The notes: a model not told the origin generated them from the letters alone. 32,000 nucleotides of DNA from Saccharolobus solfataricus (GCF_900079115.1 NZ_LT549890.1:1050001-1082000), one strand, 5' to 3'; counted from the first letter of the stretch, positions 3,172-27,987 are shown. Made by a program: numbers and translations.

Positions 3172-3984
3172 TCAACTAATTTTTAATATTCTTTTAGCAT
3201 TATCTCTCATTATCTTCTCGTTTTTTAAAACGTTGTATACTTGGTAAGCGTACTCTGCTAGATCTTGCCCCTTGAATGCTGGGAAATCACTTCCGTAAAT
3301 TACTTTATCGGATATCTCATGTATTCTAGGTAGGACTTTCAATATATTCTTAGGGGGTATAGATGAGATTTCCAAGAAAATATTTTGTGTAAAACGTGCC
3401 ATGTGGAATGCCGTATTATACCATAATGGCCTCCCTGCATGTGCCAAGATTATCCTAAGCTTAGGAAAATCCTTTGCAATATCATCAGCGTAAATTGGAT
3501 CAGCGTATTTGTTTCTACTCCCCACTCCTATACTGGTTCCAGTGTGAATTAGGATTGGTAAACCGTGATCTTCAGCAAATTCATAAATGTAAAGTAGTTG
3601 CTTTAATCCTCCTTCCTCTTCCCTATAGGCATTAGGTTTGAATGTGTGATGTACAGGGTGTAACTTAATTCCTATGATGCCTAATGAATATTGTCTTTCT
3701 AACTCTCTTTTAACATCGCATTTTAGTGGGTTTACCTCTCCCCACTGCATATAAAGGTCTGGGTTTCTCTTCCTTTCCTCGTAATCAATGTAAAATCCAT
3801 CGTAACAATCTTCACTATGACATGGATGTGAGGGAACAAGGAGGATTTTTTCAATTTCTACATTATCGTTCTTTAAAGTCATCCTTGTTCCTTCAACATT
3901 TTCTAGGAATTCCTTACAATGTTCTGGGATCTTTCTAGCATATATGTGATAGTGAACATGAGCATCAATGACTTTTATCATCAA
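3172..3984 (-). CDS. Metal-dependent amidohydrolase-fold (TIM barrel) hydrolase
   Basis: N-terminal IDAHVHYH metal-binding motif, with internal HPVHH, ILIHTG and LAHAG histidines. Starts 25 nt downstream of the CHAD gene on the same strand. Confidence 0.8.
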   Translation of the reverse strand: MMIKVIDAHVHYHIYARKIPEHCKEFLENVEGTRMTLKNDNVEIEKILLVPSHPCHSEDCYDGFYIDYEERKRNPDLYMQWGEVNPLKCDVKRELERQYSLGIIGIKLHPVHHTFKPNAYREEEGGLKQLLYIYEFAEDHGLPILIHTGTSIGVGSRNKYADPIYADDIAKDFPKLRIILAHAGRPLWYNTAFHMARFTQNIFLEISSIPPKNILKVLPRIHEISDKVIYGSDFPAFKGQDLAEYAYQVYNVLKNEKIMRDNAKRILKIS

Positions 3985-4009: not shown

Positions 4010-4645
4010 TTAATACCTATCTTCGATTTTGAAATGATGAAACTCTTCCTGAGACGCTATTATCTTTAGTATTACCCTCTTAGCCTCTTCCTTATATTGA
4101 ATTATATTTATATCTGGAGGAGTTAGTCCTCTACATCTCATCTTTAGTATTTCATCTCTTATATCTCCCATTTTCTTAGCTAGAGCCTTAATTTCAGTGT
4201 TGTCATAACCTAGAGCCTCAACTAAGTTTCTAGTCACCCTTATGTTCTTCCTTAATTCGTGGAAGTCTGTAATATCTTGTATTTGATGCAAAGAGGAGAG
4301 AATTCTATTATATATAGTAAGTCTGACCCCGTATATCTTATCATTTACGAAACAAACTTGAAGTTCTCTAACATCCTTTAGCGCCCTAATAGCCAGCTTA
4401 GTTCTCTCTCCATTAGCTATTTCACAAATATCCATATCTCTGACCTTTCCTAATCTTTTAATTGCCTCTTTTGCTAAGAATAGGCATTCCACGTTTTCAT
4501 ATACTGGATGGATAGCGTATAGCACATCGAAATACTTTCTCACAGCCACTCTCATATCGTGAATTTCCTCAACGCCAATACCGTTTATTTGGATAGCCTT
4601 TTTGAGCTGTAGGTTAAGGTAATCCTTAACTTGTGATATTGTCAA
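4010..4645 (-). CDS. CHAD-domain protein (polyphosphate-associated)
   Basis: Two copies of the CHAD His/Arg helix motif, EEIHDMRVAVRKYFDVL and FHELRKNIRVTRNL. Overlaps the upstream kinase-like gene by 20 nt. Confidence 0.7.
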   Translation of the reverse strand: MTISQVKDYLNLQLKKAIQINGIGVEEIHDMRVAVRKYFDVLYAIHPVYENVECLFLAKEAIKRLGKVRDMDICEIANGERTKLAIRALKDVRELQVCFVNDKIYGVRLTIYNRILSSLHQIQDITDFHELRKNIRVTRNLVEALGYDNTEIKALAKKMGDIRDEILKMRCRGLTPPDINIIQYKEEAKRVILKIIASQEEFHHFKIEDRY

Positions 4646-5252
4646 TTCTTCTCACTATCTCCTTCTGTACCTCATCAAATTCCTTGTCAGTGTATATTAT
4701 GTTTTCTCTAGAGGAAATTGACATTAAAGCTTCTTGAAACCTATTAATATAATCTATGTAGGCCTCAAATGTGTCCTCCTTGATGCATATATCTATTCCG
4801 GTTTCTAATGGATCCAGATAACCCCTTTTCTTTATTATCCTTCTTACTATTTCATCTGGTGTTGATATCAGTGGTAAAGAGATTGAAGGTTTAGGAAGCA
4901 TTGAGAGGACGTCATCTATCCATTCCTTCTCTAAACCTCTGGTTAATCCCCAAGAAGTTAATGTTAATGTGTAACCATCAGCTAAGGCTATAAATCCAGA
5001 ATCTATTGATGGTTTAACATAATTCTCAATTTGGTCAGCCAAGTCTGTGACATAAGCTAAAAACAATGTTCTCCTTTCAAATATTATATTCCTCTTGACT
5101 TGTGCTATTCTATCTCCTATTAATTTAGACATCTGTAACCCAAATGTAACTACTCCATATCCTTCTTTCTCCAAATACTTTTTAGTAGCCTCTAGATGAG
5201 ATGTTTTCCCAGAACCTTCAATTCCCTCAAAGGCTATTATCAATATATTCAC
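4626..5252 (-). CDS. Thymidylate-kinase-like P-loop protein, paralogue B (degenerate DRY motif)
   Basis: P-loop [12 protein letters not shown]. The Tmk DRY motif is replaced by DGY ([10 protein letters not shown]). Overlaps paralogue A by 26 nt. Confidence 0.8.
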
Positions 5253-5868
5253 CTAAAATTTTTCTTATATCAATCTGAACGTCCTTTAATGGTCTATTTC
5301 CGTCTATTGTTATGAAGTTGCTTTCCTCTTTAGCTATTTTATCGTAAATCTCTACAATTCTACTCTGATATTTTAAGAAGCCCTCTTCTAAAGGTATCTC
5401 ACCCAGTATATCAATTCCAGCCTCTTGTGGTTTTATTTTTCTCTTAGCTTTCCTAATTCTCTCCAAAGCAATTTCTGGAGTAACCCTTATGTAAAAGGTA
5501 AAGTTAGGCTTTATTGCGAAGGAGTATAGTCTCTTCACCCAATCAAAGTCCACGTTCCTAACAACATCTCTGGCGTAAGCAGTATATACGTATCGATCGC
5601 ATATTACAACGAATCCGCTCTTGAGCATTGGTAAAATATATCTTTCATATCTGTCTGAGAAATCAGTGGCGTGAATAAGACTAAAGGTTATTGATGTAAG
5701 CATATTCTTCTTTTTTGCCTCCTTTATTATATCGTGGATCCATTCAGATGAGTTCCATTCAGTTAGGTAAACGTCTCTTCTCATTTCAATCCAATCTTTT
5801 AGTAATACAGCTTGACTGGACTTTCCAGAACCATCAATACCTTCAAAAGCTATTAATAAGCCTCTCAT
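5227..5868 (-). CDS. Thymidylate-kinase-like P-loop protein, paralogue A
   Basis: P-loop [15 protein letters not shown] is retained ([12 protein letters not shown]). Basic lid [16 protein letters not shown] start/stop overlap with ppx at 5865-5868. Confidence 0.85.
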
Positions 5869-7118
5869 ACTCTTACACCGACAACGTACTTGTCTATACT
5901 ATTCTTTACTATATTTCCGAAACTTAATAACTCTTTTTTTGTAATATCGTCCTTTAAAAGTTTCACATGTTTTTTCTTAACTTTCCCACTAGCAGCCTCA
6001 CAAATCAAACCAATTAACAATACCTCATCTAGAGTAAAACCAGGTAAAACTGATTCCTTGATAAATCTATAGCAAGCCCTAAATGGGTTGAAATACCCTA
6101 CCATTTTAAAGATTAACGATAAGAGAGCAGAGGAAGCGACATAGAAGGAGTACTTACTATCAACCTCGCTCATTACCTCTTTAAAAATTCCGAAAGGAGG
6201 ATCAATTGCATTAGAATATGATATTTCTTCCAACCAATTCATCTTATCCAATTTCTTACCTTCAGTTAATACTCCCTCTCTCATACCGAAAAGGGAGACA
6301 ATCATGTCGCTCCCATTGAGATATTTTATAAGTTCATCAACAATTACTGAAGCTGAATGTATAGTTAAAGCCCTTTCCTTACTTATCCCAGGGAGGGATT
6401 TCCTACTCTCATCATCTAGTGAAGGTAAAAGGGAGGCATATTTACTAATTTGTTTCGAAGATAGTAAATAACCGTGTACTGACTTTGTCGGAAAAGAAGA
6501 TAGCTTGAGATCGAGCTTAGCTAGTGCCCTAACGTTCCCTCCTGAGCCAACCATGATATTAGCTTTCTTAATATTTATAGTTGAGAGCTCATCGGATACT
6601 TTTTTTCTAATTTCCCTTTCTGGAAGGCTAACTAATTTCAATGCTCCAATTGGCAATTGATGCACTCTAATTATATTACCCGAGGTAACTTCGGCTATTT
6701 CCAATGATCCCCCACCTAATTCGAAAAATATTCCGTCAGGAATTGGGAGCGTGTTTAACATACCCAAAGCGGCATAACTCCCTTCTTCCTCTCCGGAAAT
6801 TACTCTAACTTCATTTTCTATTATTTTGCTTAGCCTTAGCCTAACCTCGTTACCGTTAGACGCATATCGAAATGCGCTAGTAGCAACTATTTTGACTTCA
6901 TCTACGTTTATGCCATTTAATATTCTTTTAAAAATAGTAAAAGTCCTTTCTGCTTTTTCGACTTTTTCCTCTGGAATAGTATCTCCTTCCTTTAATCCTT
7001 CTCCTATTCTAACGAATGATTTAGAAGAACCAAGCGCTCTGAACGTTCCGTTACGAAAAACTTGGTAAACTACCATTCGAAACGAATTATAGCCACAATC
7101 TATAACTGCCGATATCAT
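5865..7118 (-). CDS. ppx: Exopolyphosphatase, Ppx/GppA family
   Basis: N-terminal actin-like ATPase motif [15 protein letters not shown], second phosphate motif [10 protein letters not shown], 417 aa. Confidence 0.9.
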
Positions 7119-7604
7119 CTAAATCAGCTTAAGAACTTTCTGGCTGAGTAGGATTTTCAGGGTCCCTCTTCCTTCCTTCAGATCATAATCTAAAACTGCA
7201 ACCCCACCTTTCTTAATCTCAACGTTAGCTCCACTTATCGTCTTTACGAAACTGGATAAATATGGTTCATGACCAACTACGAGAATTGTTGAGTTATCAA
7301 CGAAATCCTTAAGTTTTTCCAAAAATAGAGAAGGTTCCTTATCTGGAGTCAAATCATCGAAAGTTTCAACTTTTTTCTCACTATTGTCATCGAAGAGTTC
7401 CTCTAATATAACTTCGGCAGATTGATAGGCTCTCAAGTACGGACTGGAAACTATTCTATCTACGTTAAATCCTAATTCCTCCAAGAAATTAGCCACTCTT
7501 CTCATCTGTTTCACTCCTTTTTTTACTAGTTTTCTGTCCTTATCCTCTTTACCATCAACTTGTGGTTCAGCGTCCCCATGCCTCACCAAGATTAAAGTTA
7601 TCAT
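7119..7604 (-). CDS. SixA-type histidine phosphatase
   Basis: RHG motif LILVRHGDAE and second catalytic His in LVVGHEPYLS. 161 aa. Its stop codon abuts the ppx start codon with no gap. Confidence 0.8.
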   Translation of the reverse strand: MITLILVRHGDAEPQVDGKEDKDRKLVKKGVKQMRRVANFLEELGFNVDRIVSSPYLRAYQSAEVILEELFDDNSEKKVETFDDLTPDKEPSLFLEKLKDFVDNSTILVVGHEPYLSSFVKTISGANVEIKKGGVAVLDYDLKEGRGTLKILLSQKVLKLI

Positions 7605-7625: not shown

Positions 7626-7633
7626 TATTTAAA
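7626..7633 (-). promoter_or_regulatory. Candidate TATA box for the sixA-ppx-tmk-tmk-CHAD operon
   Basis: On the minus strand TTTAAATA lies about 22-29 nt upstream of the ATG at 7604. This is the spacing typical of leaderless Sulfolobales transcripts. Confidence 0.35.
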
Positions 7634-9242: not shown

Positions 9243-9719
9243 ATGACCAAAGAATTGACGAGGGAGGAGTACTATAAGGCATTGGAAAAGGCAGTTAACG
9301 AGGTCATACTATCCATGACTGGAACGAGGAAGGACGTTGCCAAGAGGCTCGTCCTGGGGGCGGTTGTGGGAAGAAATGCTACCGAGATAGCTCAGGAGGC
9401 CGAGATGGACTACGAGACCGTGCTGAATAACTTGGACAAGGCAGCTCAAGCCAAACTAATCGAGGTCGTGAAGAAGTTAGTCGGGGATCATCCTGTCCTT
9501 CTCATAGTGGACGACACCCACGACCACAAGCTCTACGCTAGGGCCATGCCGGTCTCCAGAAACGGGGCGCAGATCTTCTACTGTAGGGCGCACAAGAGGT
9601 TCGAACCCGCGATCCAACTCCTTGTGATTGGCGTCAAGGATCTGGTGAACAACCAGATCTACGTTAGTGCTTTCAGAAAGTTTATAGCTTTAGGCAAAGG
9701 ATATATCACTAGATCATAG
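9243..9719 (+). pseudogene. DDE transposase of the host IS, N-terminal fragment
   Basis: MTKELTREEY...LLIVDDTHDHK (first catalytic D). Genuine sequence ends at about 9662 (..NNQIY); the ORF tail reads into the MITE. Confidence 0.75.
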
Positions 9720-9747
9720 TCTAAGAACTTTTCCAAAATACTAGTGA
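9660..9747 (+). mobile_element. ISC1048-derived MITE, copy X (75-bp core 9667-9741 between TA dinucleotides)
   Basis: Both ends closely match the termini of the ISC1048-like element. GTGCTTTCAGAAAGTTTATAG matches GTGTTTCCGAAAAGTTTATAG, and reverse-complement GTATTTTGGAAAAGTTCTTAGACT matches GTATTTCCGGAAAGTTCTTAGACT. Host transposase fragments on the two sides share a frame and lie 87 nt apart. Confidence 0.65.
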
Positions 9748-9749
9748 TC

Positions 9750-9869
9750 CACATAATTGCCTACATACCCCGAAAGGTGGAAGAGGAGCTCAAGCGTAGG
9801 GGTGAGGAGGTGAAGTTCAAGACCAAGATAGATGCCCTCTTGGAGTTTCTCTCCTTATATAAAACATAT
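9750..9869 (+). pseudogene. DDE transposase of the host IS, middle fragment
   Basis: HIIAYIPRKVEEELKRRGEEVKFKTKIDALLEFLS..., same frame and GC-rich composition as the N-terminal fragment. Confidence 0.5.
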
Positions 9870-10013
9870 TAGTCAGATCTGCGTATTACAGATCTGACTG
9901 GGGTTGAGGCCGTTGCTCTCCTTGGGCTTAGAGCTCGAGAGGGAGCTTGGCCTCCTCCAATTCGGACCGGAAGTTGGGCTTGAAGCCCGAATAAAACATA
10001 AGGGTGAGTATAC

Positions 10014-10607
10014 ATGGAGGCCCCAGTCGCCGGAATAGATGTTTCAAAAGATAAATTAGTAGTGTACTTCCAAGGTAAATACTATGAATTTCAAAATAAT
10101 AAGCAAGGTTTTGAAGGAGTAAAGCAAGTCTTGCCAAAGGGTTGCAAAGTTGCTATAGAAAGTACTGGAATTTACCACATCAACTTGGCTAAGTACTTGG
10201 GTAAGGAGTACGACGTGAGGATTATTAATCCCCTCGTACTCAAGAAGTTCAAGGACATTAGGGGTAAGAAGAGTGATAAGAATGACGCTAAAAAGCTCGC
10301 TGAACTAGTTATAAGTATGGGCAGTGAGTTTACAACGAGTGAGGCTAAGGAGTCAACAAGCCAATGGGATTTTATTACAAGGAGCATTGTTAGGGTTAAG
10401 AATAGGCTAAGGAGGGATTTAATACTTCTAGGCTATAAGGACAGTTTGTCCAAGAAGAACTTGAATGAGGTATTGAGGGGGGAGGATAATATAGTATTAT
10501 CTGAGGTTAGGTTCCTCTTGGACGAGTTGGAGAGGCTTAAGGTTAGGAAGAGGGAGATTGAGGAAGAGCTTGAGGATCTTGTTCCTAAGGATAGTTTGAT
10601 CTTCACT
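10014..10607 (+). pseudogene. IS110-family transposase, N-terminal (DEDD) fragment
   Basis: VAGIDVSKDKL, VAIESTGIYH, INPLVLKKF and KSDKNDAKKLAEL motifs. The ORF-track tail 10608-10646 reads into the ISC1048-like element. Confidence 0.8.
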
Positions 10608-10608
10608 A

Positions 10609-11655
10609 GTATTTCCGGAAAGTTCTTAGACTTCAATTTTATCTAATCCTAGGTATGTTATTGCATTAAGATTAAATCTATACTTATTTTCTTCAAAGAA
10701 CTGTTTAATACAGTTTTTAACGTCTTCTATCGTATAGAATATTTTATTGCTCATGTAGTTCTTGAGGGACTTGAAGACCGCCTCAGCCATATTAAGCTCA
10801 GGCGAGTAAGGAGGAGTAAACACGGGATGAATACCCTTCCTGCGACAAACCTCAAGCGTACCCTTAGTCTTGTGAGGAGAGTAATTATCCATGACCATGT
10901 AAACCCTACCACTACCCACACGCCTCTTAAAGTACCTCAAGAAATACTTAACGGATTCAGAGTTAGGCCTTTTAGCAAGAGAAACCACTACTTCGCCGGT
11001 CCAAGCGTTTATAGCTAGAATAACATAGATTGAGGAAAAACCTATATTGACGCGCATTACGGGCTTACTGCCAACCTTAGCTAGAACCTTCTTAATTGAC
11101 GTGCTAATTACTGTCCTACACTCGTCTAGAAAGAACAGTGCCTTTCTTTCCAATTTCTTTATTTTTTTTTTAAAATCTTCCCACTTGTCCTTTTCTGCTT
11201 GGATGTTGGTGGGTCTGGGTTTTACTAGGTTGTATCCTAGTTCGTGGACTAGTTCGTATAGTCTGGATTTCTTGTATTCTATTCCTTGTTCTTGTAGTGC
11301 TATCTTGAGTGTTTTCATTGTCCAATATTCTTGTTGTATTCCGTATTTTTGGGGCTTATCTTCCAGAATTTGTTTTATCTTTTCCTCTTCTACTTTTCTG
11401 GGTCTTCCTGATCTGGGCTTGTCCTTTAGTCCATCAAGACCTTCTTTCTTGTACTTGCCAATCCACAATTTTATCGTGGAATAGCCCTTGTTAAGCATTT
11501 TCGAAACTTCTTTCTCCGATTTACCATCAACTACGTGCAGCTTCACTGCAAGAATCCTCTCCTTAATTCTCGCGTTCTTCTCTTCCTTATAAGCTTGAAC
11601 CAAATCTTGCATAGTTCAATCTGGTAATACTAATCTATAAACTTTTCGGAAACAC
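10609..11655 (-). mobile_element. ISC1048-like IS630/Tc1-mariner-family element
   Basis: 1047 bp between TA dinucleotides (10607-10608 and 11656-11657). Terminal inverted repeats GTATTTCCGGAAAGTT and (reverse complement) GTGTTTCCGAAAAGTT. Intact transposase inside. Confidence 0.75.
10626..11612 (-). CDS. IS630-family DDE transposase (intact)
   Basis: N-terminal HTH (GYSTIKLWIGKYKKEG, RSGRPRK). DDE triad context FFLDEC, MVMDNYSPHKT and YSPELNMAE. 328 aa. Confidence 0.9.
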   Translation of the reverse strand: MQDLVQAYKEEKNARIKERILAVKLHVVDGKSEKEVSKMLNKGYSTIKLWIGKYKKEGLDGLKDKPRSGRPRKVEEEKIKQILEDKPQKYGIQQEYWTMKTLKIALQEQGIEYKKSRLYELVHELGYNLVKPRPTNIQAEKDKWEDFKKKIKKLERKALFFLDECRTVISTSIKKVLAKVGSKPVMRVNIGFSSIYVILAINAWTGEVVVSLAKRPNSESVKYFLRYFKRRVGSGRVYMVMDNYSPHKTKGTLEVCRRKGIHPVFTPPYSPELNMAEAVFKSLKNYMSNKIFYTIEDVKNCIKQFFEENKYRFNLNAITYLGLDKIEV

Positions 11656-11660
11656 TAACG

Positions 11661-12017
11661 ATTCCGGGTATTGGCAGAACGCTGGGTTGTATAATTTTAG
11701 CAAGAGTTGGTGATGTTAAGCGTTTTGGTAACAAGAAGAGGTTTGTCGCTTATTGTGGTCTCGATCCTCTTGTTGAATCCAGTGGGAAGAGTGTTGTATC
11801 GAGAGGCATATCTAGGAGGGGTGATGCTGTTTTGAGGAGGGCTTTCTATCTTGCAGCTTTAACTGCTATCAAGGTTAATCCTATTATCAAGCGTTTTTAT
11901 GAGGAGCACAAGGAGAATTTGAAGGGTAAGAAGTTGATTATTGCTTGTGCCAGGAAGCTTGCTGTTATTACTTGGGCTGTGCTGTATTATAATAAGCCCT
12001 TTGATGCTAGCGAGTAA
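11661..12017 (+). pseudogene. IS110-family transposase, C-terminal fragment
   Basis: IPGIGRTLGCIILARVGDVKRF...YCGLDPLVESSGKS...RGISRRGDAVLRRAFYLAA. Same frame modulo 3 as the N-terminal fragment. Confidence 0.8.
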
Positions 12018-12063
12018 AGCAGGTGACATCACTTGAATAAGTAGTGTGTACTATGCTCGATTT

Positions 12064-12151
12064 TCACTAGTATTTTGGAAAAGTTCTTAGACTATGATCT
12101 AGTGGTATATCCTCTGCCTAAAGCTATAAACTTTCTGAAAGCACTAACGTA
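12064..12151 (-). mobile_element. ISC1048-derived MITE, copy X' (inverted relative to X; core 12070-12144)
   Basis: Its reverse complement is 86/88 identical to 9660-9747, including 5 and 4 nt beyond the flanking TA dinucleotides. Confidence 0.65.
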
Positions 12152-13205
12152 CTTTGTTGATTTGTTCAATTTGTCTCATTAAAACGATATTGTATAACAC
12201 TAATTTTTCAGTAATTAATATTTATTTCAACGTTCCTCTCAAGCTTACACCCTAATGCCCGGAGCCCTACCGACTACAGAATTCGCCAAGTGAACCATCC
12301 ACGCGTAAGCCCAGAACTTGAGCTTAGCCTCAACTACTTGTCCAGCAAAACTTGTTGCCCTAACCGATTCCCCAAAAGTACGCTTCACCGCAGAGAACAA
12401 GGACTCGACCCTCCACCTAACGCCATAACCCTTCTCCTCCCTCCAACGATCATAACCCAACTTCCTAAACTCCCGCACAGCCTTACGTCTAGCAAGATGG
12501 CCCCTTTTAGTAGAAGCGTTCTTCTTGGGAGGAACTACAACCTCAACTCCGGTCTTGTAAACCTCATTGGCGTCATATGTCTTATCTCCATAAAACTTCT
12601 TGACCTTCTTTCCCTTATCTTGAAGATCCTTAACTGTTTTTACAGCGCTTTCAACCTCGTTGCTAGTGACCTCAGCGTTTATCACGTTGAATTCGTTATT
12701 GTCCATTACTATCTCGATCTTGAGGAATTTTGAATCCCTAGTCTTACCCCACTTGGCAACAATGTATTGTCCTCCCGTGTTTGTGCTAATGCCTGTAGCG
12801 TCTGCAATTACTTCAAGTTCGTCACTTGCCTCGGGGAAGGTTATTTTCATGTTCCTCACTCTCTTCCATATTGTTGAGTAATCGAGGCTTGTGGGGATGA
12901 TCTTCAATTGTTCTAAGGCTCTTAATACTCCTTCTATTGCTCTGTAAGGTAGGAAGATGTGGAGGAAGGCTAGGAATTCGTCGAACTCCTTCGGAGCTTT
13001 ATACTTTGTCCTAGCGTTCCTGTTCTCCTCTGCTAATAAGTCCCACCAATGTTCGAATACGTAGAAGGGGAACATCAACTTATATCTAGTAATGACGTTC
13101 TCGTCGTACTTGCTCCAGTCCCTCTTGTACTTACTCTTTCCCATAGGTAATACTTAAACGAATAATTTATAAACTTTTTGTACAATTCTGAAGCAATCCA
13201 CAAAG
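12152..13205 (-). mobile_element. ISC1058-like IS5-family element
   Basis: About 1054 bp. Imperfect terminal inverted repeats CTTTGTTGATTTGTTCAATTTGT and (reverse complement) CTTTGTGGATTGCTTCAGAATTGT. Intact transposase. No target duplication visible. Confidence 0.65.
12245..13144 (-). CDS. IS5-family DDE transposase (intact)
   Basis: VIADATGIS, FYGDKTYDA and RWRVESLFSAVKRTFG motifs, 299 aa. Confidence 0.85.
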   Translation of the reverse strand: MGKSKYKRDWSKYDENVITRYKLMFPFYVFEHWWDLLAEENRNARTKYKAPKEFDEFLAFLHIFLPYRAIEGVLRALEQLKIIPTSLDYSTIWKRVRNMKITFPEASDELEVIADATGISTNTGGQYIVAKWGKTRDSKFLKIEIVMDNNEFNVINAEVTSNEVESAVKTVKDLQDKGKKVKKFYGDKTYDANEVYKTGVEVVVPPKKNASTKRGHLARRKAVREFRKLGYDRWREEKGYGVRWRVESLFSAVKRTFGESVRATSFAGQVVEAKLKFWAYAWMVHLANSVVGRAPGIRV

Positions 13206-13772
13206 CAATTTTCACGGAAAGGTTTTTATACCGGAAGCTCCCTCTCAAGTTTGAATGTAAAAGCTAGGGTCTTCGACTCATGGTACGTGAACTCGAGGAC
13301 TCTCCAATGGAATACTGTGGGGGAACTCAAGTCCAGCGCGCGAGTCGTCGAGGGTGGCAGATCCGTGCCCGTTAGCGAGTTCCCCCAAGGGGAGTACCTG
13401 GTAGAGTACTTGGGTACTCCCATAAAGTTACTTGTTATAGATGATTATAAGGGTTACGGGAGGAGGTATTTCTTCTCCACCGACCTTAACGACACGGCTG
13501 AAGATATCATAACGACCTGGGAGAACCGTTGGGACATAGAGGTCTTGATCAGGGAGCTCAAGGCCTTGGGACTCGAGGGTGGGTCCTTCTTGACCTGGGT
13601 TAGGAACTCAGGCTTCGTGGCCTTGAAGGCTCTCTCCCTCCTCGTTGTTCAATACTTCAAGTACTCCACGGGTCTGATGCTCGGGGCCAAAAGGTTGGCC
13701 AGATTGATAAAAAGTATTTACCGTGAGGCGGGTGGGATCAAAAAACTGTTCAAGAGGAGGAGAAAACCGTAA
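13173..13772 (+). pseudogene. DDE transposase of the host IS, C-terminal fragment
   Basis: ARVFDSWY (second D) and WENRWDIEVLIRELK (E/K motif). The frame is open from 13173 and has no ATG; the ORF track starts at TTG 13251. Confidence 0.75.
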
Positions 13773-14157: not shown

Positions 14158-15060
14158 TTACTTCTTAATTAGTCTTTTAATTTCCTCCCACATCTCGTCA
14201 ATCTCCTCTTGTATGCCCTTTATTTGTTCTTCAGTGAGCTGTTTAAATCTTCCTTGTAATTTTAAATACTCCGCTACTGGTTTCCTATTCTTCTTCTCAA
14301 CTAACGTCTTACTCACACTAGTTAGTTTAAATTCACCATTTTCTATTTCAAAGAGTGGCCAAACTCCAGTCTCAACTGCAAGTTTTGCAATATCGATAGT
14401 TAATTTAGAATCGAAACGCCAACCAGGTGGACATGGGGACAATAAGTGTATATATCTAAATCCTCGAATCTGTTTAGCTTTCCTCATCTTAGCTTCATAA
14501 TCATATATGTAAGCAATTGACGCAGTGGCAACATATGGTACTTTATGTTCTGCAATGATGAATGGTAAAGGCTTTTTAACCTCTCTCTTACCTTCAGGAG
14601 TTGTAGTAGTCCAAGCCCCCTTAGGAGTTAAGCCTGAACGCTGAATTCCAGTATTCATATAAGCTTCGTTATCATAGCATATGTAAAGGATATCCTCATT
14701 TCTCTCAGCAGCACCACTAACTGCGGCAAATCCTATATCACCAGTAGAACCATCACCAGCCCAAACAGCCACTATTGCGTCATTATCTCCCCTCATTCTT
14801 AGGGATCTAACAATCCCAGAACCTATTGCAGCAGCTGCTCCAAAGGCACTGTGAACTACTGGTACAGTTGAAGGCATCCCATTAGTATCTCCCATTATTA
14901 TCGTAGTACATGAAGCTGGAACTACTAGCACTGTCTTATTCCCTAAAACTTCTAGGGCTACGTCTAACTCTTTAGGTATTGGACAGCCTGGACAAGCAGC
15001 ATTTCCTCTGTAGAATTTAGGCATTCTCTTCGGTGTTACTTGACTACTCAAAACAGCCAC
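14158..15060 (-). CDS. 2-oxoacid:ferredoxin oxidoreductase, beta subunit (TPP-binding; POR/VOR type)
   Basis: CPGCP near the N terminus and TPP motif [12 protein letters not shown]...[10 protein letters not shown]. Overlaps the alpha gene by 13 nt. Confidence 0.85.
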
Positions 15061-16205
15061 CTCTCTTCTTCTAAATTATCGTTAATTAGGTCTTCAATTA
15101 CCTTTTGGAAATGACGTGGTCTGACGTCCTTCCCACCAATACCCGCTACTACACTATAAACTGGTACTCTATACCCATAAAGTGCAGCCTTTATCTCATT
15201 CACTAAGATGCCACCATAACCATATGAGTAAGCTCTATCGAAAACCACTACACCTTTCATTGACCTTAAATACTCCTCAACTTTCTCCTTTGGAAATGGT
15301 CTAAACACTCTGATTTTAAGCAACCCAGTCTTAACTCCACTATCCCTTAATCTATCAACCGCAGCTTTACCGTCACCACTCCAAGCACCCATGGTAACGA
15401 AAACGTATTTAGCATCTTCACATTTATAACACTCAACTAAACCATGCTGCTTCCTACCACTTATTCTTTCGTACTCACCCATTATTTCTTCAATAACTCC
15501 TTTTGCTCTCTCCATGGCTTTCATAGCCTCGTATCTATACTTGATATATTCCTCTGGAGTAGCAATTGGTCCAATAGCAATAGGGTCGGAAAAGTCAATT
15601 AGATTAAATTGCCTAGGCGGTAAAAAATTATCTACCTCATTATCCTCCAATACCTCAATTCTTTCCATTGTATGAGTTAATATGAAGCCGTCAAATCCCA
15701 TCATGACTGGTAAGATTACCCTCTCATCTTCTGAAATTCTAAAAGCTTGTATTGTCATATCGTAAGCTTCTTGCACGTTTTCTGCCATTATTTGAATCCA
15801 TATGGCGTCTCTTTTACTTACGAAATCTTGATGATCATCCCAAATACTCCATGGCTCAGCTATAGCTCTAGTTGCAACTGCAGCAACAATAGGAACTCTT
15901 TGACCTCCGGCCCAATATATCATTTCAGTCATGTATAGAAGTCCTTGAGAAGAAGTAGCAGTGAAAACTCTAGCACCAGCTAATGCTGCACCATAAATTG
16001 AAGCTAATGCTGAATGTTCGCTTTCAACCTTTATTAACTCAGCCTTTAATTCCTCCGAAGAAATATACTCAGAAAGTTTCTCCAACATTGTAGTTTGAGG
16101 AGTTATTGGGAATACTGCTAAAACTTTGGGTTTAGCTTGCTTAACAGCATAAGCAACTGCGTGATTACCGACTAAAGCTAGAACTTTCCTCTTTAAAACT
16201 TGCAT
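15048..16205 (-). CDS. 2-oxoacid:ferredoxin oxidoreductase, alpha subunit
   Basis: GNHAVAYAV...FPITPQT N-terminal signature, 385 aa, operon position. Confidence 0.85.
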
Positions 16206-16208
16206 TAT

Positions 16209-16475
16209 TTATTTCACCTCCCTAACCATATCTATAGCCTTAGGTGGGCAAACTTGTGCACAAACGCCACAACCTTTGCAGTAATCATAATCAATTTGAG
16301 GATATAGGTTCTCTAGGAGATCAATGGTATTTTCCAGACAATAAAGTACGCAAAGTCTGCATTTAGTACATTTATCGTAACTAATCACTGGTTTCTCTAC
16401 TCTCCATAATCCGGTTTTTCCAGCTGAACCTATCTTTGGCCTTGCAACTGGAACTCCTATTGGAACTTTAATCAA
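16209..16475 (-). CDS. 2-oxoacid:ferredoxin oxidoreductase, delta subunit (2x[4Fe-4S] ferredoxin)
   Basis: [11 protein letters not shown] and [12 protein letters not shown] cluster motifs, 88 aa. Confidence 0.85.
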
Positions 16476-17040
16476 CCCTTTTCACCTCCTTATATCCTAT
16501 TTCAACTGCCTCTGCATTCAGTTCACCGATTTTTCCGGGAAATTCCTCCTTTACAGCCTCTTCCAATGAGTGTAAGGAAGGTTGGCCCAAGATTCTTGCT
16601 AAAGCCCCTATCATTGCTGTATTAACAATAGCCCATCCAGCTACTATTAGTCCTAATTCTTTAGCAATATTGGTAGCGTCAACTACATACTCATTCTTCC
16701 AAATTCTTTTAGGTGTATTTGTGTTCAATAGCAAGAACCCGTTTTCCTTAAGACCCTCCGTAACGTTAATTAGTTGGATCATTGATACATCAAATATTGC
16801 TACACCATCTGGATTGTAAACCTCTCTATGTAAGAGTATTGGCTTATCTGATAGTCTCACAAATGAAACAACTGGTGCTCCCCTCCTTTCTCCGCCGAAA
16901 AAGGGAATAGATTGGGCGTATTTGTCCTCTAAAACCATCGCCTTCGTCATAAGTTCTCCAGCGGTAACTATCCCTTGCCCACCTCTTCCTCTTAAAGCTA
17001 ATTCAATAAGAGTCATTTTGTCACAATTATAATATTCCAA
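16468..17040 (-). CDS. 2-oxoacid:ferredoxin oxidoreductase, gamma subunit
   Basis: [14 protein letters not shown] signature. Overlaps the delta gene by 8 nt. The true start may be the internal Met at 17016. Confidence 0.85.
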
Positions 17041-17193: not shown

Positions 17194-19260
17194 ATGATAC
17201 AAGAGCATTTACCTCTTATAACTGGCAAAGGTAGTTATATAGATGATATTAATCCGAAGAATGTAGTTTACCTTCACATAATTAGATCTCCAATAGCTAG
17301 GGGTATAATAAAGAGTATATCCAAACCGGAAAGCGCACTCTTATCGTTAACATGGGAAGATGTGAAATTATACATGCCAGTGAGGCTATTTCCAGACCTA
17401 GCTAAAACTGCACAAGTTGCTAAAATGCCAGTATTGGCTGATGGTAGGGTCAACTTCGTAGGTCAACCAATTTTAGCATTTGTGGTTGAAGATAGGTACA
17501 GGACTGAGGACGTTGCAGAGGAAGTTTTAATTGATTATGACGAATTAAAGCCAGTAGTTGATCCTGAGGAATCCTTAAATGCGGATCCCATTCATCCAGG
17601 TTTAAAAAGTAACATCTCCATAGATCAACTTTTAGAAGGGGGAAACTTATCATTAAAAAATAAGGCTGAGGTTGTTGTAAGTAGGAAACTTAAGCAACAA
17701 AGGGTAGTTTCAAATCCAATGGAACCAAAAGGTTTCATCTGTTGGTGGGATAATGATATACTAAACGTTTACGTTTCCACACAAGCACCGTTTGGAGTAA
17801 AGAATGATCTAAGGGAAATTTTAGGTATTTCTCCAGAAAAGATAAGAGTTTATTCCGCGCCTAACGTAGGAGGAGGATTTGGGAATAAGAGTGGGGGATA
17901 CCCAGAATATGTCCTAGCAGCGATAGCTTCCTTGAAGCTTGGTAGGCCAGTTAAATGGATAGAAACTAGAAGTGAAATGCTAGTCAATACTCAATCCTTA
18001 GGTAGAGGGGAGGTATCAGATATGAGACTTTATGCTACCAAGGACGGTGAGATTTTAGGAATAGAAGGCACTATAATAGCAAATATAGGTGCTTTCGATT
18101 ACGGAATAGGCTTCATTGCTCCTTTATTTATTGCGAGACTATCTAATGGTCCCTATAAGATGAAATTCGCATCGATAAGAGCAATGGGAGTATTTACTAA
18201 CACTCCTCCAATGGGATTTTATAGGGGTGCTGGTAGACCAGAGGCTGCTTTAATTCATGAGACTTTGGTTGAGGATTTGGCTGAGGAGTTGGGTGTGGAT
18301 TCTGTTGAGATTAGGAGGAGGAATTTGATTGGTGATAATGGTTATGTTACTCCTTTGGGTGTTAGGATTGATCCTGCTGGTTATAATGAGGTGTTGAATG
18401 AGGCTGAGAAGTATTATAGGAAGGCTAAGGAGGTTTATAAGGACAAGGGAGTTTCAATAGTTACGTTCGCCGAGATAGTCAGAACTTCGCCAGGTGAAGG
18501 TGCTAGAGTTAAGATAGAAAACGGTAAAGTACATTTTTACTTGGGAATAGGTCCACATGGTCAAGCTTATGGTAGCACATTCAAGAGACTGGCATCTGAA
18601 GTACTAGGTATAAGTGAAGATAAAATAGAGATAACTACTGGTAGTTCTGAGATAGTTAAAGAGGGAATAGGTAGTTTCGGTTCTAGGGCAGGCACTATAG
18701 GAGGTTCTGCCGTGATAGCTGCTGCAACTGAATTACTCAAGAAGTTGAATACTAATTCTTTAAATGAGAGTGAACTAGTTAAGTATGAAGGTGTTGAGGC
18801 TGAAGTGTTCTATAAAGCTGATGATATCTTTGCCCCAGGAGCTCACGTAGCTGTAATTGATGTAGATAAGGAGACTGGATTTATTAGAGTTTTGGAGTAT
18901 TACGCTGTTGATGATGTTGGTAGAGCTATGAATAAGGAAGAGATAGAGGGACAAATAATTGGAAGTGTCCTACAAGGGGCATCACAAGTTATAATTGAAG
19001 CTATGAGATATGATGAGAGGGGAATCCCATTATGTTCCTCAATTGCAGATTGTGGAGTTCCAACAGCTTTGGAAGCTCCTTTAAAGGTAAAAACTGAGTA
19101 TATAGAGTATCCCTCTCAGCTTTTGTCCAGAAGTAGAGGTGTAGGAGAGGCCGGCACGACCGGCGCTTTACCAGCTGTTTTCATAGCAGTGGAAAAGGTT
19201 ACTAAAAAGAAGTTTGATAGAACCCCCGTAGATCCTTGGATATTAGTTTCCTCTACATAA
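17194..19260 (+). CDS. Molybdopterin hydroxylase large subunit (xanthine dehydrogenase/aldehyde oxidase family, non-form-I)
   Basis: GKGSYIDDI...IIRSPIARG N terminus, GGGFGNK, active-site loop GFYRGAGRPEA, GVGEAGTTGA near the C terminus. 688 aa. No adjacent small or medium subunit genes. Confidence 0.85.
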   Translation: MIQEHLPLITGKGSYIDDINPKNVVYLHIIRSPIARGIIKSISKPESALLSLTWEDVKLYMPVRLFPDLAKTAQVAKMPVLADGRVNFVGQPILAFVVEDRYRTEDVAEEVLIDYDELKPVVDPEESLNADPIHPGLKSNISIDQLLEGGNLSLKNKAEVVVSRKLKQQRVVSNPMEPKGFICWWDNDILNVYVSTQAPFGVKNDLREILGISPEKIRVYSAPNVGGGFGNKSGGYPEYVLAAIASLKLGRPVKWIETRSEMLVNTQSLGRGEVSDMRLYATKDGEILGIEGTIIANIGAFDYGIGFIAPLFIARLSNGPYKMKFASIRAMGVFTNTPPMGFYRGAGRPEAALIHETLVEDLAEELGVDSVEIRRRNLIGDNGYVTPLGVRIDPAGYNEVLNEAEKYYRKAKEVYKDKGVSIVTFAEIVRTSPGEGARVKIENGKVHFYLGIGPHGQAYGSTFKRLASEVLGISEDKIEITTGSSEIVKEGIGSFGSRAGTIGGSAVIAAATELLKKLNTNSLNESELVKYEGVEAEVFYKADDIFAPGAHVAVIDVDKETGFIRVLEYYAVDDVGRAMNKEEIEGQIIGSVLQGASQVIIEAMRYDERGIPLCSSIADCGVPTALEAPLKVKTEYIEYPSQLLSRSRGVGEAGTTGALPAVFIAVEKVTKKKFDRTPVDPWILVSST

Positions 19261-19904
19261 TAAGGTGTACGATTATAGATCAATAAATGGAAAAAGAGAT
19301 TTATAGCCTTTAGCGATATATAACTGAGGTTTTCAAAATTATATACTGTCGTTATCATAATATTCTAATATGATCAGAAAGAGAAAGGACTTTTTCCCTA
19401 TTTTATAAAGCCGTAGGTGCTGCTTAGTTTATCAGTTTAATGTTTTTACACCAAATCACTATTATTTTTCCTATTGATTAATATCAGATATATGATTTCT
19501 ATTTGTGAAAATTTAACAAATCTATAAAACACGTGCTATTCAAGTCAACTGTAAATTGTAATATCTTATATGAAAATAATGGTAATGGTTCTTTCTCTTA
19601 GTACCTTTAGTATAATGTTCGCTCACGCTAGTCCCCTATTAGTCTTTGAAATATGAAATCAATTATTACAAATACTTCTACAGAAACAAATTGAAATCGT
19701 GAAGGAGACGTAAATCGCCCAGAGGCACATAGAAGCAAGCTTAATATCTAGAAATTAATATAAACTTTACTTAAAATTCTCTAGTTAGTAGATAACACTT
19801 GGCCGTGCACTTTTATGATCCTATCGCTAATAAACCAATATAACTATTTGATCAAGTTTATATTAGTGAAATTCAGCACCGGTCTCATAGTTTTCCTACT
19901 CGTG

Positions 19905-20237
19905 TTAATTTTTAGGTAATAATCTTGGATTAGACTCAATTATCTTTACTAAGTTATCTAAAGTTTTTAACTTCTCATCGACTTCCTCCTCTTTCTCTTC
20001 AAGTTGTTTATGTAAATCGGTAAGTTCTTTTTGCACTTCTTCAAGCTTTTTCTTGCACTTTTCTTCAATTTCCTTAAGTTCATCATTACACTTATCAAAG
20101 TTATCGAGATATTTTATGGTAGCGTAAATGATCGAGGCTACAGCTATTCTCTCATCTTCCGTTAATTGTTCTCCGTGCACAAACTTATCTAATGCAATAG
20201 AAAGTTGTTTTATCCATTCTTCAAGCATAATAATCAT
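19905..20237 (-). CDS. Hypothetical coiled-coil protein
   Basis: 110-aa ORF with heptad-like, E/K-rich C-terminal half (KEIEEKCKKKLEEVQKELTDLHKQLEEKEEEVDEKLK). No recognisable domain. Confidence 0.5.
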   Translation of the reverse strand: MIIMLEEWIKQLSIALDKFVHGEQLTEDERIAVASIIYATIKYLDNFDKCNDELKEIEEKCKKKLEEVQKELTDLHKQLEEKEEEVDEKLKTLDNLVKIIESNPRLLPKN

Positions 20238-20306
20238 ACTAGTAGAGGATTTATATTTGTTTTTCGTTTTCGTAATTTCGACCCTAATTTCCCTTCTGTA
20301 CCGCGT

Positions 20307-20771
20307 ATGAGAAAGTTTAAATTAGTATGCGAGAAGAACATTAAATTGATGCCTTCGTTCGGCATTATGACAGATATTGTAACTGAAGAACTTAAGGAAG
20401 AGCTAAGGAAAAAGTTAGGAAGGGAAATTCCTAGTGTTACTGTGGAGTTTGTTAACTACCTCCCTCCTCAAGTATTGGCATATGTAAGGGCTAACGATTA
20501 CACAATATACGTCAACTATGAACAGTATATGAGAGCTAAGAGAATGGGATACGAATACGATTATTTGTACGTTATACTACTACACGAATACTTACATATT
20601 ATCGGGATTGCTGATGAAAGAGAGGTAAGGAGGATAGATTTAGAAATGGTAAAGGACAAGTTTGGTGAAAATAGTACAGCATATAAAATAGCCTTAAATC
20701 TAGCAGACCCTAGGGATATACATTTAAATGAATCTCAAAGATTAGGCGGAAAGCCAAATACCTTTATGTAA
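20307..20771 (+). CDS. Hypothetical protein with HExxH motif (putative small zinc metallopeptidase)
   Basis: VILLHEYLHIIG contains HEYLH. The ORF-track start 20205 overlaps the divergent gene, so I prefer ATG 20307. ATG 20349 and 20367 are also possible, since TTTAAATT at 20314-20321 could be a TATA box. Confidence 0.55.
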   Translation: MRKFKLVCEKNIKLMPSFGIMTDIVTEELKEELRKKLGREIPSVTVEFVNYLPPQVLAYVRANDYTIYVNYEQYMRAKRMGYEYDYLYVILLHEYLHIIGIADEREVRRIDLEMVKDKFGENSTAYKIALNLADPRDIHLNESQRLGGKPNTFM

Positions 20772-20844
20772 TACAAAAATATTTATTTTCTTGGTTTTAC
20801 ATTTTAGTTAAGAGTAGTTAGGTATCTGAATTAGAAGGGAAATG

Positions 20845-20852
20845 TTTATATA
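20845..20852 (+). promoter_or_regulatory. Candidate TATA box for the 20874 gene
   Basis: TTTATATA is centred about 26 nt upstream of the GTG start at 20874. Confidence 0.35.
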
Positions 20853-20873
20853 GAAAAGAAATAAGATACTCTT

Positions 20874-21293
20874 GTGCAGGATAAAATAGAAATTTATGGC
20901 GAAGAATACGATGAGAAACTTTCTGTAATATTAGCCGATCCCAATTTTTTAATTACAAATCTGCTTGGGGCGTCAAATGTTGATATTAAAGAAGGCGACT
21001 TTACTGCAGAAGTTCCTTTATCAGCACTACTTGGTAAGGCTACAATAGTAATATATGGCAAAGTCTTCAGATCCCTAAACTCTATAACTTATGTGATTAA
21101 CGTTGCCGGATATGGTCCAGATAAGGGTGGGAAAATAAGAGTCCAGTTAGAAAAAGGTAAGATAATTATTGATGTAGAATTTAATATTCCATTAGGGTTT
21201 TTAAATGCAAGACTTATTAAATCGAGAATAGCCGATTTCAAAAACAAGGCAAATGAGTTGATAAGACTAGAAAGGATAAAGAGAAAAATTTAA
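20874..21293 (+). CDS. Hypothetical protein (139 aa)
   Basis: Clean ORF with a GTG start at leaderless spacing from a TATA box. Alternating beta-like pattern and a C-terminal helix. Any SRPBCC/CoxG-like assignment is only a guess. Confidence 0.55.
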   Translation: MQDKIEIYGEEYDEKLSVILADPNFLITNLLGASNVDIKEGDFTAEVPLSALLGKATIVIYGKVFRSLNSITYVINVAGYGPDKGGKIRVQLEKGKIIIDVEFNIPLGFLNARLIKSRIADFKNKANELIRLERIKRKI

Positions 21294-21406
21294 CTTTAGT
21301 ATAAAATACTTTCAAAACTCATCGAGCTGATTTGAACACTATATAGCCATAAAGGGATCTATCTACCATAAAAATCCTTTTATTAATTAACGTTTAATTA
21401 TTTATT

Positions 21407-22765
21407 ATGGACTTCTCCGAATTGAGAGATATTGAGCAAAAGGTAGAGGAGAGAGAGGATTTTTCTGGAGATAAAGTAAGACCATTAGTCGTGTTTTTCC
21501 CTAAGGATGAGGATGAGGTTATTAGAATTGTTAAGTTTGCTAAGAAAAACAAAGTACCCATAATACCCTGGGGTCAAGGAACGAGTTTAACTGGAGCAGT
21601 CTCATGTGATAAAAACTGTATACTTGTTGACCTATCAAAAATGAATAAAATTTTAGAGATAAACGATGTTGACTGGTATGTAAGAGTCCAACCGGGAATT
21701 AAATTAATAGACCTTTTCGAGGAATTGGAGAAAAAGGGCTTTATGTTACCTCCAGATCCAGCAAGCTTCTTCCTATGTTCAGTCGGCGGGGCAGTTGCTG
21801 AATCCTCAGGAGGGATGAGGGGAGTAAGACATGGCTCGTTTAGAGAATGGGTATTATCATTACGTGTTGTATTACCAGATGGGGAAGTAATTAAGGTTGG
21901 AGAACCACTAAGGAAGAATAGGGCCGGATATGATTTAGTCCATTTGTTTGTGGGAAGTGAGGGAACTTTAGGAATAATAACGGAAATCTGGTTAAGAATA
22001 ATCCCAATTTCCAAGAGGAAGATGGTTATGATAGCTGCAATGCTAAAAGATTTCGAATCTGCAGGGGAAGTGATATTAGGTTTAAGGAAGAACAAGATCT
22101 TGCCAGAGTTATCAGAATATGTTGATGCTGATGTAGTCAAGGCGTTGAATAAGCACTTTAGCGCTAACCTAAAGGAAACGGAGGGAGGAATGCTATTAAT
22201 TTCAATAGAGGAAGATAGTGTTAATGATGTATTGAAAGTTCTTGAGGGGAGGGCAGTTGATATTAAAATTGCAGAAGGTGAAGAGGCACAGAAATTGTAC
22301 TCATTAAGATCACAAGCTGCGATTGCAGTGAAAGCAGAGGCAGGAAACGTATTTTACGCTGAAGACATAGTTGTACCAGTTTCTAAATTGCCCGAGGCTA
22401 TAAGAAGACTTGGAGAAATAGGCGAGAAGTACAATACTAAATTCTACGTAATATCACATATAGGTGATGGTAACCTTCATCCAAATATAATAATTGAGGA
22501 AAAAGAAGTAAGGGAAAAGGCATTTGAAGAAATAGCTAGAATGGCAATAGAGTTAGGTGGTTCTGTTAGCGGTGAGCATGGTATTGGTGTGCAGAAGGCA
22601 AAGTTAATGGCTGAGCAAATAGTTAAACACAATGGTATTAGGGTATTAGACTTAATGTATCAGATAAAGAAGTTAATTGATCCAGACGACATAATGAATC
22701 CAAATAAGTATGTAGAGTTAGCCTATAAGTACATATCCTCTCCTACAAATTCTATACTAGATTAA
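21407..22765 (+). CDS. FAD-linked oxidase (GlcD / D-lactate dehydrogenase family)
   Basis: PCMH-type FAD-binding region [14 protein letters not shown]...[11 protein letters not shown] and C-terminal [10 protein letters not shown]. 452 aa. Confidence 0.85.
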
Positions 22766-22879
22766 TAGGATTTACTAACTTAAAGTTAGGTCCTTTTAAT
22801 TCTTACTATAAAATTTACCCTCCTAATATTTAATGTAACATTTTCTCTTCTCAAAATTGTAACATCTAAACACTTTATC

Positions 22880-23204
22880 TTAACGGGGGTTAAGGGATCT
22901 TCCGCCCCCTTCCTCAAGGGGATGGATAGCCCCCTTATATAAAAGTTTTTTAACTAATCTAATCATATATTTCTTACATGATAGTTACCAATGGAGTAAG
23001 CGTCACCGAGACGCCTTGGTTAAAGCGAGGGTCAATGAGGTACGCCTCTGCTCCAGACAGTAGCCCCAAAGGCGGTAACAGTGTCATGGTTAATGAGTTT
23101 CGTTCGGGGTCGGAACGACCCTTAGTGTGGAGCTCTGCCCTCTACCGCTGGCAAGGTGGGGGTATGAGGCAGGAAGCCTTGTCCGTTAGGGCAGGGCAGT
23201 TCAC
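22880..23204 (+). mobile_element. tnpB-less IS200/IS605-derived element (MITE-like); left boundary uncertain
   Basis: GC-rich hairpins (for example CCCCTT-CCTC-AAGGGG at 22906-22921), a TATA-like TTATATAAAA (22935-22944), then a structured GC-rich segment. That segment ends in the same right-end sequence, with terminal TCAC, as the element at 1-934. Confidence 0.45.
23104..23204 (+). ncRNA. Orphan copy of the TnpB right-end / omega-RNA-like scaffold
   Basis: CGGGGTCGGAACGACCCTTAGTGTGGAGCTCTGCCCTCTACC...GGCAAGGTGGGG...GCAGGAAGC... aligns with 829-934. Similarity stops after TCAC in both copies. The 22978-23214 ORF is a by-product of this similarity. Confidence 0.4.
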
Positions 23205-23681: not shown

Positions 23682-23685
23682 GGAA

Positions 23686-25555: not shown

Positions 25556-25628
25556 AATTTATAACACCTATAGAAATAAATTGAATAGAGTACAGAAAAA
25601 CGTTTTATTAATTGATATCTTCCTATTA

Positions 25629-27986: not shown

Positions 27987-27987
27987 C

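Follow-up and report, generated by a model that had tools for sequence, protein, structure and literature searches.

We report that positions 7604 to 4010 of a 32,000-nucleotide stretch of the Saccharolobus solfataricus chromosome (NZ_LT549890.1:1050001-1082000, referred to here as the window, with all coordinates counted from its first letter) carry the polyphosphate operon sixA-ppx-cPPK3-rPPK3-CHAD as it occurs in S. solfataricus. Two adjacent genes of this operon (Tmk-like A and Tmk-like B, hereafter A and B) belong to the thymidylate kinase family, and we predict from their sequences that they encode the catalytic (cPPK3) and the non-catalytic, activating (rPPK3) subunit, respectively, of a family-3 polyphosphate kinase. 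We consider it highly probable that A is the catalytic component and B an activating pseudo-kinase of a reversible phosphotransferase acting between adenosine triphosphate (ATP) and polyphosphate (polyP), with Ppx providing a hydrolytic route and the CHAD protein binding the polymer.

The polyP kinase of the Crenarchaeota was a long-standing gap because these organisms contain polyP granules and lack both PPK1 and PPK2 (PMC12995831). The gap has been closed by the work of Hofmann et al. on Sulfolobus acidocaldarius (bioRxiv 2024, 10.1101/2024.08.28.610084; J Biol Chem 2026, PMC12995831), which describes a heteromeric, reversible polyphosphate kinase and founds the family PPK3. Its genes are part of saci_2017-2021, which encodes SixA, PPX, two proteins annotated as deoxythymidine monophosphate (dTMP) kinases and a CHAD protein, and which is confirmed as an operon by transcriptome data (PMC12995831). 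The first of the two kinase-like proteins, Saci_2019 (cPPK3), forms polyP from ATP on its own and without a primer; the second, Saci_2020 (rPPK3), is inactive and boosts the activity of Saci_2019 about 10-fold, with an optimum at a 1:1 molar ratio, the complex of the two being an alpha2beta2 tetramer (PMC12995831). The reverse reaction, in which polyP and adenosine diphosphate (ADP) yield ATP, is about 50-fold faster, and polyP is synthesized only at a high ATP/ADP ratio, ADP being a complete inhibitor (PMC12995831). The r subunit is without the arginine clamp, and the c subunit has a basic polyP cleft in place of the dTMP pocket (PMC12995831).

The polyphosphate kinase identity of the Tmk-like pair is already published for this sister species (2024-2026). 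A first-pass annotation of the window, produced by a model, mentioned a Tmk-like polyP kinase beside ppx in S. acidocaldarius, and a report of such an enzyme exists (PMC12995831). Its further proposal that A and B assemble into a polyP kinase in which one subunit is catalytic and the other degenerate describes how Saci_2019 and Saci_2020 behave (PMC12995831), of which A and B are the orthologues.

Operon layout and promoter

The five genes are located on the minus strand, and the 3595 nucleotides from 7604 to 4010 do not include any non-coding base. In order, they are a SixA-like gene (7119-7604, ATG...TAG, 161 amino acids, AAK41443), ppx/gppA (5865-7118, ATG...TGA, 417 amino acids, AAK41442), A (cPPK3; 5227-5868, ATG...TGA, 213 amino acids, AAK41441), B (rPPK3; 4626-5252, GTG...TAA, 208 amino acids, AAK41440) and the gene for the CHAD protein SsCHAD (4010-4645, TTG...TAA, 211 amino acids, AAK41439). 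The first junction has a gap of 0 and the following three are overlaps of 4, 26 and 20 nucleotides. The coordinates, the gap and the overlaps were all re-derived as the first-pass annotation had given them, and each of the motifs that it quoted for the SixA-like protein, A, B and the CHAD protein was located in the translated open reading frames. Family scans agree with its labels (SixA, Ppx/GppA, two Tmk-like proteins and CHAD), with the Pfam score of the CHAD protein falling just below threshold.

All five proteins are exact matches of S. solfataricus P2 proteins AAK41439-AAK41443. As these accessions are consecutive, we infer the locus names SSO1191-1194 for the four genes other than that of the CHAD protein. 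The operon DNA is 100% identical, without a mismatch, in the S. solfataricus genomes CP033235, CP160827 and CP033241.

A TATA-like box, TTTAAATA, can be read from the sequence on the minus strand at 7626..7633, that is, 29 to 22 nucleotides upstream of the sixA ATG. In the promoter geometry of the Sulfolobales, this position before sixA fits a single promoter with a leaderless transcript. On the basis of that geometry, the box is the likely promoter of the operon, with a predicted leaderless or short-leader mRNA. A single promoter upstream of sixA would then probably drive the whole operon, and translation of its genes is probably coupled through their start and stop codons, which overlap or abut.

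The Tmk-like pair

A and B are adjacent paralogues of the family PF02223 on the same strand, with the c-type gene first and the r-type gene second. A matches PF02223 with 100.6 bits and B with 48.2 bits (cut-off 27), and neither protein has a match to PPK2 (PF03976) in Pfam at E<=0.01. The correspondence with the S. acidocaldarius subunits is specific for each protein: A has 68% identity with Saci_2019 and B 60% with Saci_2020, compared with 29-33% for the crosswise comparisons of A with Saci_2020 and of B with Saci_2019 (33% for the latter). A is also 76% identical over its full length to STK_15430 (PDB 2plr/5h70; phmmer E=3e-108), a protein whose structure served as the cPPK3 template in the published study (PMC12995831). 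The match of B to the STK_15430 crystal structure has E=1.9e-22.

Residues characteristic of the two subunits were derived from an alignment of 118 cPPK3-like and 45 rPPK3-like proteins with the Aquifex aeolicus dTMP kinase. Invariant or nearly invariant among the 118 c subunits are K16 of the P-loop, W38, N39, H66, F70, R73, D91-R92-Y93, R100, D101, R104 and K146, and A carries every one of them; six basic residues in this set (K16, R73, R92, R100, R104 and K146) are each conserved in 116-118 of the 118 homologues. The ten-letter motif that the first-pass annotation quoted for A is found at residue 8. A contains DRY at two positions, residues 72 and 91, the second of which is the catalytic DRX motif (D91-R92-Y93). 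A has the P-loop lysine, the DRX arginine, the basic lid and conserved basic residues that probably belong to the polyP cleft proposed for PPK3, and we predict from these features that it is cPPK3, the catalytic subunit.

B has its own quoted ten-letter motif at residue 8 and DGY, given at residue 92, in the place of DRY (D91-G92-Y93). The signature of the r subunits consists of G92 and Q73 (each in 45/45 Sulfolobaceae-type rPPK3 proteins), Y66, W100 or Y100, and D146; B holds the r-type residues G92, Q73, Y66, W100 and D146. Based on this signature, B is predicted to be rPPK3, a non-catalytic activating subunit.

The start of B allows an alternative, namely a TTG three codons downstream (5243), which gives the 205-amino-acid form found in databases and reduces the A/B overlap to 17 nucleotides. 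Several S. solfataricus records number the CHAD protein, A, Ppx and SixA consecutively as AKA74379-74382, with B placed out of series as AKA75113 with 205 amino acids. This mismatch suggests that another start was chosen for the overlapping r gene or that the gene was added later, apparently an inconsistency of annotation and not of biology.

Several points weigh against assigning the pair to PPK3. A scores 110 bits with TIGR00041, above the cut-off of 83 for the NCBI dTMP kinase equivalog, and Biswas et al. (2017) described its close homologue STK_15430 as an 'unusual thymidylate kinase', albeit from an assay in which, according to the PPK3 preprint (10.1101/2024.08.28.610084), the formation of ADP alone was measured. 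B keeps an intact GSGKT P-loop and may bind a nucleotide, which limits the term 'dead' to catalysis. The kinase activity, the roles of the subunits and their stoichiometry are known from the S. acidocaldarius orthologues alone, and a single transcript in S. solfataricus is suggested by the overlaps and the TATA-like box. Finally, the 32-kb window contains no third Tmk-like gene.

The score of A and the report on STK_15430 are among the arguments for a different explanation, namely that the existing annotation is right and that A, perhaps together with B, is a dTMP kinase that merely adjoins ppx. The PF02223 matches of both proteins and their database names, which designate dTMP kinases, point in the same direction: A is a 100% match of the S. 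solfataricus 'Probable thymidylate kinase 2' and B is named 'Thymidylate kinase related protein'. However, the residues of the canonical dTMP site, as defined by the Aquifex enzyme as the sole reference, are replaced in both proteins: in A, EP is changed to EW, the stacking Phe of LLFEASR to His and the Arg of FEASR to Phe, and in B the corresponding changes are to LQ, Tyr and Leu. This loss agrees with the published finding that the c subunit has a basic cleft for polyP where a dTMP pocket would be. B moreover scores 46 bits with TIGR00041, under the cut-off, and is without the catalytic DRX arginine. In 31P nuclear magnetic resonance and coupled assays, Saci_2019 and Saci_2020 formed no deoxythymidine diphosphate, in contrast to Saci_0893, the true dTMP kinase of S. 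acidocaldarius, which is encoded elsewhere in its genome (PMC12995831). All carriers of PPK3 have several dTMP kinase paralogues (PMC12995831), including two further dTMP kinases in Sulfurisphaera tokodaii (10.1101/2024.08.28.610084), and the UniProt name 'thymidylate kinase 2' for A implies that another tmk is present in the S. solfataricus genome. With the tandem pair also conserved beside polyP genes, we regard the dTMP kinase explanation as extremely improbable and retain the assignment of A and B to PPK3.

A recent duplication of the housekeeping tmk was considered as an origin of the pair and ruled out: A and B are about 30% identical to each other, and each belongs to its own deep, conserved subfamily.

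Accessory proteins of the operon

The SixA-like protein scores 95.6 bits with the TIGR00249 equivalog, above the cut-off of 74.5, and matches PF00300 with E=7.9e-14. Its motifs LVRHGDAE at residue 6 (R8-H9-G10) and VVGHEPY at residue 109 supply the RHG motif and the second catalytic histidine. It is 59% identical to Saci_2017, and its relatives in PDB include 3f2i (E=1.1e-15) and the Escherichia coli SixA 1ujb (E=1e-8). By these sequence features, the protein is a SixA-type histidine phosphatase and the orthologue of Saci_2017.

Ppx matches PF02541 with 134 bits and TIGR03706 with 220 bits, the latter under the cut-off of 307. The acidic motifs GEEEGSY at residue 109 and ELGGGSLE at residue 133 follow the crenarchaeal pattern, in which Glu takes the place of E. 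coli D141, as described for crenarchaeal PPX (PMC5859850). With 45% identity to Saci_2018 and matches to Ppx/GppA structures in PDB down to E=1.5e-32, the protein is classified by sequence as an exopolyphosphatase and the orthologue of Saci_2018. A functional S. solfataricus PPX was characterized by Cardona et al. (2002), as related in papers that cite that work, and over-expression of ppx strips S. solfataricus cells of polyP.

The fifth protein scores 23.7 bits with PF05235, just under the gathering threshold of 25.6, and contains HDMRVAVRK at residue 29 and FHELRKNIRVTR at residue 128. The residues H29, R32, R36 and R69 of the conserved basic surface are found at exactly the numbers published for SsCHAD, and the protein is 36% identical to Saci_2021. 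It is SsCHAD (Q97YW1, SSO_1190, AAK41439), a short CHAD-domain protein that binds polyP; SSO_1190 is named as a CHAD protein in PMC10892726. Lorenzo-Orts et al. (2019, PMC6537752) found that SsCHAD binds polyP with a dissociation constant of 45 nM, that it shows no binding to single-stranded DNA or to RNA, and that a quadruple mutant of the conserved His and Arg residues loses polyP binding. The first-pass annotation had left the roles of the SixA-like and CHAD proteins open, as do the authors of PMC12995831. For the CHAD protein at this locus, part of the function is established, namely its specific binding of polyP.

Conservation of the pair and its neighbourhood

Relatives of the pair were sought by scanning one genome per GTDB species with cPPK3-specific peptide patterns, which yielded at least 598 confirmed relatives. 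Gene neighbourhoods were analyzed for a sample of 81 loci, consisting of the best 80 of the at least 598 loci and S. acidocaldarius. The SixA profile used for this purpose was rebuilt at E<=1e-8 and gave 31 matches; an iteration at E<=1e-4 drifted to 150-191 matches and was discarded. A hidden Markov model of the Sulfolobaceae r subunits missed the distant second subunits, all of which scored higher with the c model, and the signature columns described above were used instead.

A second Tmk-like gene directly follows the cPPK3-like gene in 72/81 loci, most commonly with a 4-nucleotide overlap. A ppx gene lies within 6 kb in 47 of the 81 loci and a SixA-like gene in 28; 17 loci have the complete set of SixA, Ppx and CHAD, and 32 loci have no ppx, sixA or CHAD gene within 6 kb. 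In the window, ppx, sixA and the CHAD gene are contiguous and co-oriented with the pair. The exact order sixA-ppx-c-r-CHAD is kept in 5/5 Sulfolobaceae-like loci. Since the tandem gene, the ppx linkage and, in the Sulfolobaceae-like loci, the full order recur at these frequencies, the objection that the linkage might not be conserved falls. S. acidocaldarius and four other Sulfolobaceae-like genomes have this gene set too, with its order unchanged and its overlaps comparable, which shows that the arrangement is no chance event.

The second subunits of the wider family share Tyr66 (72/72) and Asp146 (68/72) with the r signature. They keep the DRX arginine in 67/72 cases and have the P-loop lysine changed to arginine in 69/72. 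The change from DRY to DGY is limited to the Sulfolobaceae-type r subunits, most of which also have the P-loop arginine; the P-loop lysine is found in the r subunits of the S. solfataricus/islandicus and S. acidocaldarius groups. Judged from these sequence patterns, r-type subunits are degenerate by different routes in different lineages. Because 67 of the 72 second subunits of the wider family keep the arginine, the published cause of r subunit inactivity, namely the loss of the DRX arginine, is lineage-specific.

The PPK3-like matches include Verrucomicrobiota, Acidobacteriota, Planctomycetota and Desulfobacterota, many of them metagenome-assembled genomes, as well as Thermoplasmata and Nitrososphaeraceae. 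The distribution of PPK3-like pairs seems to be broader than the 'few bacteria' of the published abstract. The lineage-specific degeneracy of the r subunit and the wide spread of PPK3 are incremental additions to the published work and may already stand in the supplementary figures of the paper.

Proposed mechanism

In the mechanism that we propose, A would be a P-loop kinase with the thymidylate kinase fold that binds ATP or ADP at the usual site, and a positively charged cleft would take the end of the polyP chain where the dTMP pocket would otherwise be, allowing the terminal phosphate to be transferred reversibly between ATP and polyP. B would be a catalytically dead paralogue in which the arginine clamp of the DRX motif is replaced by Gly; by analogy with S. 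acidocaldarius, a dimer of B would form the core of an alpha2beta2 tetramer and lift the activity of A about tenfold. The direction of the reaction would be set by the ATP/ADP ratio, with polyP made only when the ratio is high and converted back to ATP when the energy charge falls. Ppx would hydrolyse the ends of polyP to phosphate, and the CHAD protein would bind polyP. This scheme supposes that the S. solfataricus pair behaves like the S. acidocaldarius pair, which we infer from their orthology.

The published preference for the reverse reaction raises the question of whether the pair might serve in vivo almost exclusively as a one-way polyP:ADP phosphotransferase that regenerates ATP, with polyP made by another enzyme in S. 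solfataricus. The roughly 50-fold faster reverse reaction would suit such a role, and so would the findings that polyP formation was observed only when ATP was regenerated in the assay and that ADP inhibited it fully. On the other hand, the primer-free synthesis of polyP from ATP by Saci_2019 demonstrates the forward reaction, the Crenarchaeota lack PPK1 and PPK2 and have no other known candidate, and respiring cells usually maintain an ATP/ADP ratio well above the equilibrium ratio of 3-4 (PMC12995831). A nearly one-way enzyme in S. solfataricus is in our estimation very unlikely, and we favour the reversible phosphotransferase. The reverse preference does affect the designation of the locus by the first-pass annotation as a 'synthesis/turnover operon': turnover, or an energy buffer, is the better description because of the roughly 50-fold preference and the restriction of synthesis to high ATP/ADP, and synthesis alone fits less well.

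Two suggestions go beyond the published work, and taken together we consider them rather unlikely. First, the target of SixA in polyP operons could be something other than the kinase itself, for example polyP-modified or phosphohistidine proteins or the ends of polyP chains, because SixA is linked here to a P-loop polyP kinase, for which a phosphohistidine intermediate is not expected. Second, given its intact GSGKT P-loop, the S. solfataricus r subunit could bind ATP or ADP and act as a sensor of energy charge that sets the direction of the enzyme.

The practical consequence of the assignment is that 'dTMP kinase' should give way to cPPK3 in the annotation of AAK41441 and to rPPK3 in that of AAK41440; public databases still list both as thymidylate kinase. 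Owing to its characterized PPX and CHAD protein and the existence of polyP-minus strains, S. solfataricus is a convenient organism for questions about the roles of SixA and CHAD and about the relation of polyP synthesis to degradation.

Other features of the window

Downstream of the operon, an Amidohydro_2 gene (3172..3984, minus strand; PF04909, 93 bits) starts 25 nucleotides after the CHAD gene. It is a possible sixth co-transcribed gene in S. solfataricus only and lies outside the conserved operon. A TATA-like sequence, TTAATAATA, overlaps the CHAD stop codon ahead of this gene. The gene adjoins the CHAD gene in S. solfataricus only and is not found at that place in S. acidocaldarius; Metallosphaera javensis has a homologue with 66% identity about 1.2 kb upstream of sixA, and in S. 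solfataricus CP033235 the gene is interrupted at residue 252 by an ISC1217 insertion.

The block 9243-13772, which is not found at the same place in CP160827, is a nest of insertion sequences (IS). The N-terminal half of an ISC1217 transposase (9243-9719, Pfam positions 1-144) and its C-terminal half (13251-13772, Pfam positions 183-327) enclose an IS110-type gene (10014-10646), an IS630-like DDE_3 gene (10626-11612, minus strand) and an IS4/5-like DDE_Tnp_1 gene (12245-13144, minus strand). Near the beginning of the window, an open reading frame on the plus strand (202-897, 231 amino acids) is TnpB-like, with OrfB_IS605 and a Cas12f1-like TNB domain, and is probably truncated, as other S. solfataricus genomes have intact copies of about 394 amino acids in the vicinity of the operon.

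The regions 14158-17040 (minus strand) and 17194-30307 contain ordinary metabolic genes, among them a 2-oxoacid:ferredoxin oxidoreductase set (POR gamma, POR_N/PFOR_II and TPP_enzyme_C). A CoxLMS-like molybdenum hydroxylase cluster at 25629-29350 is accompanied by a CoxE-like VWA protein, an AAA ATPase and an XdhC protein with a YHS domain, and a second large subunit is encoded at 17194-19260. No tRNA gene (ARAGORN) and no Rfam match were found in the window.

Comparison with known systems

The closest known system is the SaPPK3 operon saci_2017-2021. Its five genes correspond to those described here, in an unchanged order and on a single strand, and they likewise abut or overlap; for the two loci together, the junctions amount to 0, 4, about 22-26 and about 11-20 nucleotides. 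The subunit-specific residues are also shared, among them DRY in c and DGY in r. The two loci differ in the P-loop of the r subunit, which is MSSGKT in Saci_2020 and the canonical GSGKT in the window, and in the amidohydrolase gene that follows the CHAD gene only in the window.

STK_15430 of S. tokodaii (2plr, 4nzy, 4rzx and 5h70) is a cPPK3 homologue of A with the thymidylate kinase fold and with ADP bound. Its deposition and publication describe it as a probable or unusual thymidylate kinase, and its structure was solved without an r partner. The canonical dTMP kinases (A. aeolicus 2pbr/5xb2 and Saci_0893) have the fold, the P-loop, the DRX motif and the lid in common with A; they differ in that they are homodimers, compared with the c2r2 heterotetramers of PPK3, and in that their EP motif, stacking Phe and Arg are intact.

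A functional parallel is provided by the two-domain class II PPK2 (Pseudomonas aeruginosa PA3455), in which an inactive P-loop module likewise drives oligomerization and activates the catalytic module, and in which the equilibrium likewise favours polyP-dependent phosphorylation of nucleotides. In contrast to PPK3, PPK2 belongs to another P-loop kinase family, has both modules in one chain, and phosphorylates AMP and GMP (adenosine and guanosine monophosphate) and not ADP, with the ADP and polyP sites swapped.

The bacterial ppk1-ppx clusters, which may also include SixA and CHAD genes, have the same accessory genes around the kinase as the window. PPK1 acts via a phosphohistidine intermediate, and its fold is unrelated to that of PPK3, which is a P-loop kinase. 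It has been suggested that PPK3 took the place of PPK1 in situ, or PPK1 that of PPK3 (PMC12995831).

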